Positions 31,948 to 35,700 of a DNA stretch of 64,000 nt are shown here, piece by piece; position 1 is the stretch's first letter, and each line of letters opens with the position of its first letter. The DNA comes from Anaerolineales bacterium UBA6092 (GTDB lineage Bacteria; Chloroflexota; Anaerolineae; Anaerolineales; UBA4823). Location: positions 51,570 to 115,569 of the forward strand of contig DIXA01000058.1 in assembly GCA_002428565.1 (NCBI GenBank), given 5' to 3'. The notes under the pieces were generated by a model. The model saw nothing but the letters and a program-made list of their open reading frames with translations, did not search any database and was not told the DNA's origin. The position numbers and the translations under genes are program-made.

Positions 31948-32748
31948 ATGCAAGTCATCGCAATTGCTAACGAAAAAGGTGGCGTAGCCAAAACCACCAC
32001 GGTTATATCTTTGGCAGGGGCGTTGGTGCAGGCTGGGTACGGCGTGCTGGCGATCGACCTGGATGCCCAGGCGAACCTGACCCTGGGCCTGGGCTTACAG
32101 CCAGCCCGGCTGCGCCGCTCGGTGGCAGATGTGCTGCTGAACTCGGCGGCATTGCTGAGCGTGAGCCGAGAAACCAGCGTTTCAGGCTTAGACGTGGTGC
32201 CCGCCAATGCCGACATGGGCCTGGCAGAGCGTTTTCTGCCTGTGCGCCAGAATTATGAGTACATTTTACAGAATGCGCTGCGCGACAGCCCTGGCCTGGC
32301 AGCCTATCATTATGTGCTGCTAGACTGCCCGCCCTCGCTGGGCGCAGTGACCACCAATGCCCTGACGGCAGCCAATCTGGTGATTGCGCCCACCCAGCCG
32401 GAGTATTTCTCGGCTTACGGTTTGCGCAGCCTGATGGCGACCATCCGCCGGGTGCGCAGCCAGAGCAACGCTGCCCTGTCTTATTATGTGCTCATCACGA
32501 TGATGGATCGCCGCAACCGCATCCACCGTACCTTGTGTGAACAATTGCAGGTCACGTTTGGAGAAGGTTTGTTGAAGACGATCATTGAGGTGGATACCAA
32601 GCTGCGTGAGAGCACGGTAGCCGGTATGCCCATCACCCATTATTTCCCCAAGAGCCGCAGTGCCATGCAGTACACTGCCCTTGCCCAGGAGTTGGTGAAT
32701 CATGTCCAAGAGAAAGCCGCGGTCGAAATCAGTTCGCAATCGGATTGA
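31948..32748 (+). CDS. ParA/MinD-family P-loop ATPase (deviant Walker A), no ParB partner
   Basis: MQVIAIANEKGGVAKTTT carries the KGGxxK[ST] deviant Walker A. Also LAIDLDAQANLT and VLLDCPPSLG (Walker B-like). ATG 31948 lies 2 nt after the upstream stop; TTG 31942 is an alternative start. Confidence 0.88.
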   Translation: MQVIAIANEKGGVAKTTTVISLAGALVQAGYGVLAIDLDAQANLTLGLGLQPARLRRSVADVLLNSAALLSVSRETSVSGLDVVPANADMGLAERFLPVRQNYEYILQNALRDSPGLAAYHYVLLDCPPSLGAVTTNALTAANLVIAPTQPEYFSAYGLRSLMATIRRVRSQSNAALSYYVLITMMDRRNRIHRTLCEQLQVTFGEGLLKTIIEVDTKLRESTVAGMPITHYFPKSRSAMQYTALAQELVNHVQEKAAVEISSQSD

Positions 32749-35700
32749 GAGCCTGTTCGAAGACCTGGGTAGCGAAGCAACTTTCGCATCTCAGGTAGGA
32801 CAGGAAGGCGTGGAGCCAGAGGCCCAGCCGCCGATGGAGGATTCCTCGCTGCTGGAACGTTTGCAGCAGTCGGGCGAAACTCGCCTCGGCTTGTCGGGAC
32901 AGGTGGATCGAACCCGCCCCTTATTCTCCACGCTCTCCCAGACGGTCAGCGGTGGCGAAGCCACCCTGTCGGTGCCATTCCAGGTGCAAGAATCGGAAGT
33001 GGCGCTGCTGGAGGTGCTGGATGACACCGAAGGGCGAATCTGGAGCGAGGATGAGCGCCGCCTGGTGGAACAGGTGGCGGATCAATTATCCCTGGCTTTA
33101 GAGAATGCGCGCCTGTTCCAGAATACGCAGGCCGCCCTGGCCGAAACGCAAACCCTGTACGGCATCGTCAGCGCGGCCACGCGCTCTCTTGACCTGCAAG
33201 AAACCTTGAGCGACTTGCTGTCTCAGGTGCTCCAGGCGGTGAACATTGATGCTGGCTTGATCAGCATGTTCGATGAGACCACCAACAGGCTGGAACTGCT
33301 GGCGCAGCGCAACTTGCCTGAAGCCATGGGAAATAAACTGCAAACAGAAGGTTTGCAGGGCACGTTGGGCGAATATGTTTACCGCACACAAAAATCTCTG
33401 AGCATTGAGGATTTAAACCATCCCCCTGAATTCTTGGATGTGGATGTTAGCGGCGTGGCGCGCCAGGGCTTTCGCTCCTACCTGGGCGTTCCATTGGTGT
33501 CCAAGGGACGGGTCTTGGGCTCGCTGGATGGTTTTGGTTATGGCACGCGCAGTGAGCAATCGGCGAATATCGCCCTGATGCAGGTGGCTGGGCAGCAGAT
33601 TGGTATTGCAGTGGAGAACTCTCGCCTCTTCACCCAGACCCAACAGCGTGCAGAGGAAATGAGCATCTTGCACCAGGTTTCGCTGGAACTGGCGCAGGAA
33701 GAGCGCGACCTGGACGTGATCTTGAAGATCATCACCGATCGCACCATGGAACTGCTGGATGCGGATGGGGCGGGCGTCTGGTTGTACCGTGAGGCAGAAG
33801 AAGAACTCGAGATGGTCATCTCCGTGCAAAAAAGCGGAACGGATTATACCGGCAGGCGTCTAAAAAAAGGCGAGGGCCTGGTGGGTCAGGCTTACGCCAG
33901 CGGTAAAGTGCAGGTGATTGATGACTATGTGACCTGGTCGGGGCGCTCGCAGTCATTCAAAGACGCTCCTTTCCGGGCTGCGCTGGCGGTGCCCATGGTG
34001 TGGCAGACGCGCTCGATTGGTGCCCTGGTGGTCACGCGTGACCGGTCCAATATGCCATTCTTGGCCAATGAGCAGTCGCTGGCAGAACTGCTGGCGGCGC
34101 AGGCGGCTGCGGTGCTGCAGAACGCCCGCCTGTTCACCGAGGCAGAGCGTCGCGGCGAAAACCTGGCAGTGCTCAACGAGATGGGCCAGGCGTTGACCTC
34201 CTTGCTGGATGTGAAGGCGATCACCGAAGCGATGCTGAACTTCACCACTCGCCTGATGCCCATTGAAACCTTCTTTGTGGCCCTCTTCGATGCGGATAAA
34301 GAGGAACTTACCTTTCCCACCGTCATGTCGCGCGGCGAACGGATCGAATTCGCCACGCGTAAATTGGGCAAGGGTTTGACGGATGCGGTTATCCGCAGGG
34401 GTGAGGCGGTGCTGCTGAATGGTTGGGATGTGCCCGACCAGATGGAAAGAATGGGCGTCAAGTTTGTGGCCCTGGGCAATGACAAGCCAGCGGTTTCCTG
34501 GCTGGGTGTGCCGCTCTTGTATGGCGGCAAGGTGCTGGGGGTGATCTCGCTGCAAAGCATTTCCATACCCTACCTGTACACCAGCGACCACCTCAACCTG
34601 TTAACGGCAGTTGCCAGCCAGGCCTCCAACGCCATCCAGAATGCGCGCCTGTTCACGGATGCTCAGCGCCGCAGTGAGCAGCTGGTAATTCTGAATGAGC
34701 TGGGGCGTGAGCTGTCTAGCATGCTTGATGTGGATGCAATCGCAGAGACAATTCACGTATACATGCACCGCTTGGTACCATCGGAGGAAAAAACCTCTTT
34801 TGTTGCCCTGTACAACGCCAAAACCCAGATGGTTGACATGCCGATTGTGGTTGTGCGTGGCGAGCGCGTTGAAACACCGCCGCGTCCGTTGGGCAATGCC
34901 AACACAGATTACATTTTGCGCACTGGGGAACCACTTCTGCTCAATGGCGAAGATGGACAGAGGATCCGCCGCGAGAAAGGCATTGAATTTGTCCCGCTAG
35001 GTGATAACAAATTGGACGTGCTTTGCTGGCTTGGGGTGCCGATTCGTTATGGTGAGGATATTTTGGGTGTGCTTTCAATGCAAAGCATTGAAGTCCCTTA
35101 TACCTTCAGCCAGGAACACCAGAGCTTATTGACTGCGCTAGCCAGCCAGGCCGCCAGCGCAATTCAGAATGCGCGTCTGTTCACTGAAGCGCAGCGGAAT
35201 AGCGAAAACCTGGCCGTGCTGAATGAACTCGGGCGCACACTGGGTAGTTTGCTGGATGTGAACCAGATCGCCGAGTCCATCTATACCTCTGCGGCTCGCC
35301 TGATGCCCACCGAAACATTCTTTGTGGCACTGTATGACCGGCAGTTGGATGAGGTGCAGACGCCGGTTGTGTTCATGGAAGGAAATCGCATTGAACGCCC
35401 GCCGCGCCGCCTGGGGTCGGGGCTCTCCGATTACATCATCCGCACTGGCGAAGCGCTGCTGCTGAACGGTGATGAGGGTATGCGCCGCCGAGATGAGCTG
35501 GGGATCAAGTTTGTGGCCCTGGGCAACGACCGGCCGGCTCTCTCCTGGCTGGGCGTGCCTATCCGTTACGGTGACGAGGTGATGGGGGTGATCTCGCTGC
35601 AGAGTGTCGTCACGCCTTACCTGTACACAGAAGAACACAAGAATCTGCTGACGGCCGTTTCCAGCCAGGCAGCCAGTGCCATGCAGAACGCCCGCCTGCT

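Follow-up and report, generated by a model that had tools for sequence, protein, structure and literature searches.

Organization of the locus

The stretch of DNA analyzed here, called the window, comprises 64,000 nucleotides (nt) of contig DIXA01000058.1 (forward strand, positions 51,570-115,569) from Anaerolineales bacterium UBA6092, and it encodes a giant soluble hybrid histidine kinase whose gene is preceded on the same strand by a ParA/MinD-family ATPase gene and, further upstream, by ten receptor open reading frames (ORFs), R1 to R10, that span 3774-31945. How receptors without a kinase and without a recognizable output domain signal, and how organisms with very large sensor repertoires wire many inputs to few transmitters, are open problems. 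The locus offers a testable answer: every receptor has a truncated-GAF tail, the one kinase has what could be a truncated-GAF socket, a ParA-like ATPase is encoded in the operon, and the arrangement is found in hundreds of Chloroflexota species. The two central genes are:

32702..40918, + strand: giant soluble hybrid histidine kinase, 2738 amino acids (aa) (ORF, translation, Pfam)
31942..32748, + strand: ParA/MinD-family ATPase, Pfam AAA_31 (1e-47) and CbiA, deviant Walker A motif NEKGGVAKT

The kinase consists of an N-terminal adaptor followed, according to Pfam, by 12 GAF domains, HisKA, HATPase_c and 2 REC domains, and its start is overlapped by the final 47 nt of the ParA/MinD-like gene. 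The product of ORF 31942-32748 has both the deviant Walker A pattern KGG..K[ST] and the family fold, and its NCBIfam matches are all under the equivalog cut-offs. The receptors are assembled from Cache, MASE11, HAMP and GAF domains. Pfam detects neither HisKA nor HATPase in R1-R10, nor any other output domain, and the description of the ten receptors as kinase-less in the initial annotation, which was made from the sequence alone, is therefore correct.

The kinase starts with the remainder of a GAF domain

The ATG at 32702 is the real start of the kinase, because residues 1-23 are conserved, the ParA gene overlaps the start, and a GGAG lies 10 nt 5′ of the ATG. On the same three grounds a later alternative start is ruled out, including one downstream of 33118, which the initial annotation had named as a way in which its reading could fail. 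A search with kinase residues 1-159 returned 73 proteins, most of them at 87-96% query coverage and 35-45% identity, and the homologs (about 70) keep the extreme N-terminus (MPKKKPIDKRLKNLFEDV... compared with MSKRKPRSKSVRNRIESLFEDL in the window). In the 80 loci that were kept from the 388 genomes with the kinase module, the module starts at residue 2-4 of the stop-to-stop ORF; in 64 of the 80 it begins inside the ParA ORF, 22-78 nt short of that ORF's end, and a further 13 have a longer kinase N-terminus with the ParA overlap still kept. The elements of the N-terminus, up to the first complete GAF domain, are:

32702..32770, + strand: kinase residues 1-23, MSKRKPRSKSVRNRIESLFEDLG, basic peptide and amphipathic helix (AlphaFold2 (AF2), conservation)
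32771..32935, + strand: kinase residues ~24-78, disordered, non-conserved linker (predicted local distance difference test (pLDDT), variable alignment)
32936..33022, + strand: kinase residues 79-107, β-meander with the hairpin core LSVPFQV / VALLEVLD (AF2, partial Pfam GAF)
33041..33184, + strand: Trp114 and long helix 116-161, GAF α5 plus connector to GAF1 (AF2, conservation)
33194..33631, + strand: GAF1, the first complete five-stranded GAF of the kinase (AF2 elements 165-310, Pfam, Foldseek)

The AF2 model of kinase residues 1-330 (monomer, 70-sequence alignment, mean pLDDT 78.5) has a helix at 11-23 (pLDDT ~84), disorder at 30-75 (pLDDT <50), strands at 79-83, 86-94 and 100-107, a helix at 116-161, and then the five-stranded GAF1; here and below, statements on packing in AF2 models rest on secondary structure and pLDDT. 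The first 85 residues had been taken to be low-complexity, which does not hold for residues 1-23, a motif conserved in at least 70 of 82 loci. The sequence initially singled out, ATLSVPFQVQESEVALLEVLDDTEGRIWSEDERRLVEQVADQLSLALENARLF, does lie at residues 87-139 (nt 32960-33118) of ORF 32702-40918. On residues 1-165, Pfam matches only the C-terminal positions of GAF profiles (PF01590 85-133 of 133, PF13185 66-136, PF13492 51-129), all with scores under the gathering thresholds, which are given in parentheses: PF01590 21.8 (22.4), PF13185 22.3 (28.6) and PF13492 23.3 (27). The hairpin LSVPFQV / VALLEVLD corresponds to the final two GAF strands, and the C-terminal GAF hairpin is followed by α5 with its ..A.ENARLF.. 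motif; the N-terminal helices, β1-β2 and a full sheet of five or six strands are missing. Because the Pfam matches cover the C-terminal part of the profiles alone, and because the AF2 secondary structure agrees, the kinase can be said to begin with the remainder of a GAF domain. No upstream GAF elements precede this half (hereafter the N-half) in any homolog across the 80 loci examined, and the claim that no GAF N-terminal half stands in front of it is borne out by these loci, the AF2 model and the partial Pfam matches alike.

Within the N-half, the first of the three strands (79-83) is not conserved among homologs, and the conserved core consists of the hairpin, W114 and the helix. The family alignment shows near-invariant hairpin residues at F93, A101, L103, V105 and D107, helix 116-161 holds the near-invariant LV.QVADQLSLALENARLFQ.TQ, and the 70-sequence alignment of the kinase N-terminus contains 14 invariant columns in all. 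Could the N-half be simply a part of GAF1? Foldseek matches the kinase model to tandem GAF-GAF or GAF-PHY structures with a long connecting helix (template modeling (TM) scores of 0.48-0.51 over ~260 columns); because of these matches and the continuous 46-residue helix, we regard the N-half as separate from GAF1, and the initial annotation's proviso that the two might fold as one is answered by that same predicted helix, which keeps them apart. The helix is also the most constrained element. Mean pairwise identity across 79 species is 0.77 for the 32-aa helix of the N-half versus 0.43 for the equivalent helix of the next GAF in the same proteins, and 0.32 versus 0.23 for the respective strands. 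All faces of the N-half helix are conserved, which fits a surface serving more than the kinase's own fold.

All ten receptors end in a common tail

Each of the ten receptors terminates in a tail of ~48 aa with the motif RRA.RERL..EIT...R.SLD...IL.TA..E.R.AL.L..V.I.L, detected at 38-73 bits with a hidden Markov model (HMM) that was built from external sequences only:

5757..5897, + strand: R1 tail, aa 662-708 of ORF 3774-5975, 49.7 bits, 25 aa before the stop
7473..7613, + strand: R2 tail, aa 496-542 of ORF 5988-7688, 38.1 bits
9434..9571, + strand: R3 tail, aa 584-629 of ORF 7685-9628, 63.2 bits
12924..13064, + strand: R4 tail, aa 754-800 of ORF 10665-13097, 70.6 bits
15832..15966, + strand: R5 tail, aa 940-984 of ORF 13015-16032, 62.5 bits
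18635..18769, + strand: R6 tail, aa 875-919 of ORF 16013-18841, 57.6 bits
22557..22694, + strand: R7 tail, aa 701-746 of ORF 20457-22730, 72.2 bits
26009..26152, + strand: R8 tail, aa 674-721 of ORF 23990-26272, 73.0 bits
28891..29031, + strand: R9 tail, aa 875-921 of ORF 26269-29076, 60.3 bits
31787..31927, + strand: R10 tail, aa 932-978 of ORF 28994-31945, 51.1 bits, 5 aa before the stop

The invariant tail positions, R-A..E and R.S.D...L, lie in the helical part, and the strand-like end V.I.L is conserved in its hydrophobic pattern and kept ahead of the stop. Neither the tail nor the kinase N-half has a Pfam or NCBIfam family, and the tail alone has no match at E ≤ 10. Internal GAF starts in the window score 7 bits or less with the tail HMM, the best in the kinase scoring 7 bits. 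The start of GAF1, the first helices of which had seemed to resemble the tails, is unmatched by the tail HMM, so that this resemblance is generic.

What precedes the tail? The module in front of it had been described as an orphan half-GAF. We modeled the last 205 residues of R6 with AF2 (monomer, 128 sequences, pLDDT 81.8), and the pre-tail module of this receptor is predicted to be a complete five-stranded mini-GAF, with a helix at 2-34, strands at 40-43 and 46-49, a helix at 56-64, and strands at 68-71, 79-87 and 90-99. The best matches of the R6 model in the PDB are GAF domains, although weak ones (TM 0.3-0.45). R1 and R4 have full-size GAFs in front of their tails, and the description as an orphan half is therefore withdrawn for the receptors, on the strength of the one modeled mini-GAF and these two full domains. 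Since the tails of R1 and R4 follow full-size GAFs, the tail is also independent of the type of module that precedes it; in R4 (10665-13097) the order is mini-GAF, full-size GAF, tail. In the R6 model the tail is a straight, exposed extension of the last helix (model residues 108-172), and the terminal EVTIQLG is unpaired with pLDDT <70. We considered whether the main role of the tail might be to fold back on its own mini-GAF, a form of complementation in cis or circular permutation. This was rejected because AF2 shows no fold-back, the mini-GAF already has five strands, and the tails of R1 and R4 follow full GAFs.

The receptor ORFs themselves vary at their N-termini. R1 (3774-5975) starts with a zinc ribbon instead of the Cache and HAMP domains found in most of the others. 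The listed ATGs of R5 (13015-13097) and R10 (28994-29076) give 83-nt overlaps with the preceding receptor ORF, and because of these overlaps the true start of each may be downstream of the listed one. Elsewhere in the array several receptor genes adjoin one another or share 4-20 nt, and this arrangement suggests that their translation is coupled.

Receptor tail and kinase N-half are two ends of one GAF subfamily

In the initial annotation, the kinase half was held to be the same module as that found before the receptor tails. With an HMM of 107 external pre-tail halves, the kinase half obtains 57 bits, which is in the range of ordinary receptor GAF halves (56-66) and under that of most true pre-tail halves (71-88). 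Conversely, an HMM of 67 external kinase halves gives 93 bits for the window kinase, 13-40 (median 29) for receptor pre-tail halves and -2 to 31 (median ~18) for ordinary halves, the pre-tail and ordinary halves differing with a Mann-Whitney p = 6e-4. A Trp stands right before α5 in 9/10 reduced modules, that is, the kinase N-half, where it is present, together with the receptor mini-GAFs, versus 0/27 full-size GAF halves in the window (Fisher p = 8e-8). From the HMM scores, the identity of the two modules has to be given up, and the kinase half is better described as a sister family of the pre-tail module with a common Trp signature.

A library-wide profile search with the ten tails matched 9616 proteins at E ≤ 0.001, and the top matches are multi-GAF proteins. 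Complete GAFs in these top matches start in a tail-like manner, ..RER.L.EI...IR.SLD...I..T...E.R..L..DRV.IY.F, and those that do so finish with ..LWGLL..HQC...R.W...E....Q.A.QL..A..QA.L. Because complete GAFs carry both, the receptor tail and the Trp-type half can be recognized as the start and the end of a single GAF subfamily, of the cyanobacterial type.

In proteins with two tails, the spacing after the first tail is 128-174 aa, the remainder of a full GAF, or 99-117 aa, a mini-GAF, or 71-72 aa. The shortest spacing is found only in the small double-unit receptors P0214 and P0342, in which a tail, a linker of 14-17 aa, a hairpin and a helix follow one another in a single chain, and this arrangement is, by its sequence, the one-chain equivalent of a receptor tail plus the kinase N-half. 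Receptors with two or three tails (P0214, P0342, P0209, P0225, P0227, P0238, P0280, P0285 and P0296) repeat a hairpin-helix-tail or mini-GAF-tail unit in tandem, and they form a natural series from full to minimal GAF. "Short" spacings that were found by pattern matching in long proteins proved to be ordinary full cyanobacterial GAFs and were discarded. Among the top 150 library matches there is no unsplit protein in which receptor, tail, half-GAF and kinase are joined.

Distribution and synteny

The kinase module occurs in 388 species-level genomes, nearly all of them metagenome-assembled genomes of Anaerolineales, Anaerolineae or Chloroflexota. The gene order is tail-receptor array, ParA, kinase, PALP-REC, EamA, where the last two genes are:

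40922..42640, + strand: pyridoxal phosphate (PLP)-dependent enzyme (threonine-synthase-like) fused to a receiver domain, PALP-REC (Pfam PALP and Response_reg)
42640..43581, + strand: EamA-family transporter, directly 3′ of PALP-REC (Pfam, synteny)

Within 10 kb upstream of the kinase, the 80 loci have 3-6 tail receptors on the same strand; a single one lies downstream (L005) and none on the opposite strand. The tail ends at most 40 aa from the stop in 262 of the 271 cases in these genome loci, and a PALP(-REC) gene follows the kinase in most of the 80, being syntenic also in L002, L083 and L085. The kinase of the L002 type is a shortened homolog of ~800 aa. Searching from the other side gave the same picture. 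A search seeded with the tails found four long contigs, three of which show ParA, kinase, PALP-REC and EamA directly downstream, and the fourth of which is the start of an array. A metagenome scan seeded with the six closer tails yielded 78 loci with 291 tails, all co-oriented, at up to 10 per 20 kb. In metagenome arrays with ParA and enough downstream sequence, the kinase module comes next in most, and otherwise a tail receptor with the N-terminal motif discussed below. The synteny of tail array and kinase is thus strict in both search directions.

PALP-REC is likely the phosphotransfer target of the kinase. It scores 229 bits against the NCBIfam threonine synthase model and does not reach its cut-off of 303. 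The pair PALP-REC and EamA (40922-43581) is kept right after the kinase in other genomes, and an enzymatic output is unusual for a two-component system.

The N-terminal helix and the ParA-like ATPase

The family consensus of kinase residues 1-23 is M[PS]KKK(P)..[KN]RL..LF[ED]D, and the first 16 residues contain a median of 6 K/R (70 loci). Partner proteins of ParA/MinD ATPases are reported to contact the ATPase through a charged N-terminus, and the ATPases ParC and PpfA position chemoreceptor arrays (PMC10241942). The kinase agrees with such partners in that its gene adjoins the ATPase gene and that it has a charged N-terminal peptide, MSKRKPRSKSVRNR..., which is not fully disordered, as AF2 predicts the helix at 11-23. 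The segment 1-23 is probably the contact for the ParA/MinD-like ATPase; if it is a ParA-partner peptide, the histidine kinase becomes a ParA cargo or adaptor.

This helix is separable from the half-GAF that follows it. A PAS-like insert of about 110 aa, which replaces or extends the linker, stands between the N-terminal helix and the half-GAF in 13 genome loci, and this makes the two independent modules. The pattern GW.W..D..G.Y..CsPEV...LG...E.F.Gk... of the insert marks a kinase subfamily, represented by loci L007, L009, L011, L013, L015, L018, L019, L024, L035, L040, L042, L055, L074, L099 and L103. The helix is moreover found at the head of tail receptors: in eight variant metagenome loci (L106, L120, L130, L135, L151, L152, L156 and L159), ParA is followed, with an overlap in most, by a tail-ending membrane receptor that begins with an acidic version of the kinase helix (MSDNDLRDHLSGLFSD, MTDTNLESRLEGLFS), in which the L..LF.D core is retained and the basic residues are lost. 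As it heads both kinases and variant receptors, the N-terminal helix is linked genetically to ParA in proteins of two kinds. That helix 11-23 might be a structural part of the half-GAF was ruled out by the PAS-like inserts and by the presence of the same helix at the head of tail receptors.

A GAF domain split between receptors and kinase?

What might explain why ten receptors end with the beginning of a GAF domain, and the kinase encoded next to them begins with the end of one? From the anatomy, homology, gene linkage and conservation observed, we infer that the receptor tails could dock in trans on the kinase N-half by GAF complementation, as the initial annotation had proposed, and we infer likewise the geometry and the 2:2 stoichiometry of the complex. 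The absence of α1, α2, β1 and β2 from the kinase N-half would be by design, and α1-α2-β1 of the same GAF subfamily are what each receptor ends in. The two tails of a receptor dimer would plug into the two half-GAFs of a kinase dimer; the strand of each tail would pair with the hairpin of the kinase at its free edge, and the helix of each tail would lie over the sheet, next to the helix of the kinase. A minimal GAF-like connector would be rebuilt in this way, joining the helical spine of the receptor to the GAF spine of the kinase, and many interchangeable sensors could drive one transmitter. The ParA-like ATPase would bind the N-terminal helix of the kinase and so place or partition the complexes. 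We favor docking because of the anatomy, the single GAF subfamily, the one-chain fusions, the synteny, the constraint on the helix and the lack of any other output in the receptors, and we would rate its chances at slightly below even. The wider proposal that a GAF domain is naturally split over two genes as a plug and socket, with about ten sensor dimers for one kinase dimer and positioning by the ParA-like ATPase through the N-terminal helix, and that this design is widespread in Anaerolineales, is possible, if rather doubtful.

Several observations count against docking. The receptor-half HMM ranks the kinase half no closer than ordinary GAF halves. In the AF2 models on which the proposal draws, which are monomers, the tail is a continuous helix where a folded GAF start would show helix-turn-helix-strand. 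The rebuilt domain would miss the middle of a GAF (β2, α3, β3 and α4), and with ten receptors to the two sockets of a kinase dimer, the receptors would have to compete or exchange. One-chain fusions are rare, and two strong tails occur in 0/568 tail ORFs of the fetched loci. Tails are not homogenized by genome: their identity is 0.37 within a locus versus 0.39 between loci, a comparison that, as a test for co-adaptation of tails and kinase half, is powerless with a near-invariant kinase helix. Finally, in the variant loci it is the tail receptor and not the kinase that follows ParA, and the partner of the tail is not seen there.

Histidine kinases are obligate dimers, and the kinase N-half might accordingly be explained without the receptors. 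In that case the half-GAF would be vestigial and the helix would start the coiled-coil spine of the kinase, with two hairpins pairing or capping the helix, and the tails would act elsewhere, in receptor oligomerization, on another kinase GAF or on ParA. Apart from the dimeric state of histidine kinases, this agrees with the AF2 model, in which the hairpin sits on a 46-residue helix running into GAF1 as in the spines of tandem GAF-GAF/GAF-PHY proteins, and with the scoring of the kinase half by the receptor-half HMM like any GAF half. It leaves unexplained the far higher conservation of the helix relative to other GAF helices of the same proteins, the absence of the N-terminal half from all 80 loci, and the fact that the receptors end in precisely those elements of the subfamily that the kinase half lacks; it also leaves ten receptors without an output, and we consider it unlikely. 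Another way for the two sides to meet would be through their long α5-α1 helices, packed as a four-helix bundle to which the hairpin and the tail strand are accessory. Long exposed helices are predicted on both sides (kinase 116-161 and R6 model 108-172), the kinase helix is more conserved than the strands (0.77 versus 0.32), and the invariant tail positions are helical. But the strand-like V.I.L end of the tail keeps its hydrophobic pattern and is always retained before the stop, and the one-chain fusions resemble folded mini-GAFs and not bundles, so that a bundle appears improbable.

Could tails and kinase N-half share no more than ancestry? They would then be relics of the fission or duplication of a multi-GAF ancestor, without contact, and the co-regulation of an operon would explain the synteny. 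GAF segments are indeed abundant and repetitive at this locus, and the covariation comparison of the tails gave nothing. Against this, the truncated ends are conserved in position and sequence over the 388 species-level genomes, which implies selection on the truncated forms, the tails are confined to within ~40 aa of the stop, and the receptors would again be without an output domain; shared ancestry alone seems to us very improbable.

If docking is true, this would be the first GAF domain known to be split in nature and a new mode of assembly for modular two-component sensors, with a template for engineering swappable sensor-kinase pairs, and a histidine-kinase complex outside chemotaxis would join the cargoes that ParA/MinD proteins position. 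An architecture like that of a chemosensory array would then have been built from entirely different parts. Even if docking is false, three undescribed conserved families with clear boundaries can be recognized: the receptor tail, the kinase N-half and the ParA-linked N-terminal helix.

Comparison with known systems

The kinase N-terminus is reminiscent of tandem GAF and GAF-PHY proteins (PDE2A 3ibj, Cph2 4bwi, SyB-Cph1 8w26), in which a long helix joins successive GAF cores, and of multi-GAF cyanobacterial kinases; cyanobacterial-type GAFs have homologs of the tail at one end and of the Trp-type half at the other. Unlike in these proteins, the first "GAF" of the kinase has no α1-α2-β1-β2 and no ligand pocket, and the matching start is found at the C-termini of separate proteins. 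Completion of an incomplete sheet by a strand from another chain is known from chaperone-usher donor-strand complementation and from engineered split PAS/GAF reporters; the proposed logic is the same, except that here complementation is deduced from the locus. We know of no description of a GAF that is split in nature, and a full-text literature search of incomplete coverage turned up neither this system nor such a GAF. In the stressosome, paralogous sensors with a common C-terminal module (the RsbR paralogs, with RsbS) act on one kinase, RsbT. Both systems have several variable sensors with a common end that feed, or here would feed, one kinase, but the stressosome uses STAS domains, an icosahedral assembly and a serine kinase in place of GAF fragments and a histidine kinase.

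Among systems with a ParA-like ATPase, the closest likeness is to the MCP-CheW-CheA chemosensory arrays with ParC in Vibrio or PpfA in Rhodobacter sphaeroides. These also have kinase-less Cache/HAMP receptors with a common cytoplasmic end, a single soluble histidine kinase and a ParA/MinD-family gene inside the signaling locus. No MCPsignal, CheW or CheA P1-P5 architecture was found by Pfam among the 21 window ORFs scanned. Unlike in chemosensory arrays, the receptor end is a truncated GAF start and not a helical hairpin tip, and the kinase is a HisKA-type hybrid with 12 GAF domains. As with the partners of other ParA/MinD ATPases (ParB, MinE, McdB, PomX and TlpT, as well as those of chemosensory arrays), the kinase gene adjoins the ATPase gene and the N-terminus of its product is a positively charged peptide (PMC10241942). 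It differs in its conserved core, L..[RH]L..LF.D, which forms an amphipathic helix that is kept in the variant loci while the basic residues turn acidic, and in that the putative partner is itself a histidine kinase or a receptor.

Neighboring genes

The receptor array is interrupted by three genes for other proteins: 9615-10631 encodes an NMT1/THI5-like binding protein, 22727-23917 a Peripla_BP_6 solute-binding protein, and 18859-20433 a 524-aa multi-pass membrane protein that has no Pfam match. Their products may deliver ligands to the adjoining Cache receptors. An NMT1 gene is also found inside the receptor array of L084.

Downstream of the EamA gene, 43616-48154 encodes a protein of 1512 aa with a double zinc ribbon, two adenylate/guanylate cyclase domains, an AAA_16 ATPase and TPR repeats. 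This cyclase-domain protein adjoins a GAF-rich locus, and GAF domains are potential cyclic-nucleotide binders. On the - strand and convergent to the main operon, 48235-53601 encodes an OmpR-type response regulator, a REC-GAF-HisKA kinase and a GAF-GAF-HisKA kinase; the OmpR-type regulator and the REC-GAF kinase are found at the same place in L002, L083 and L085.

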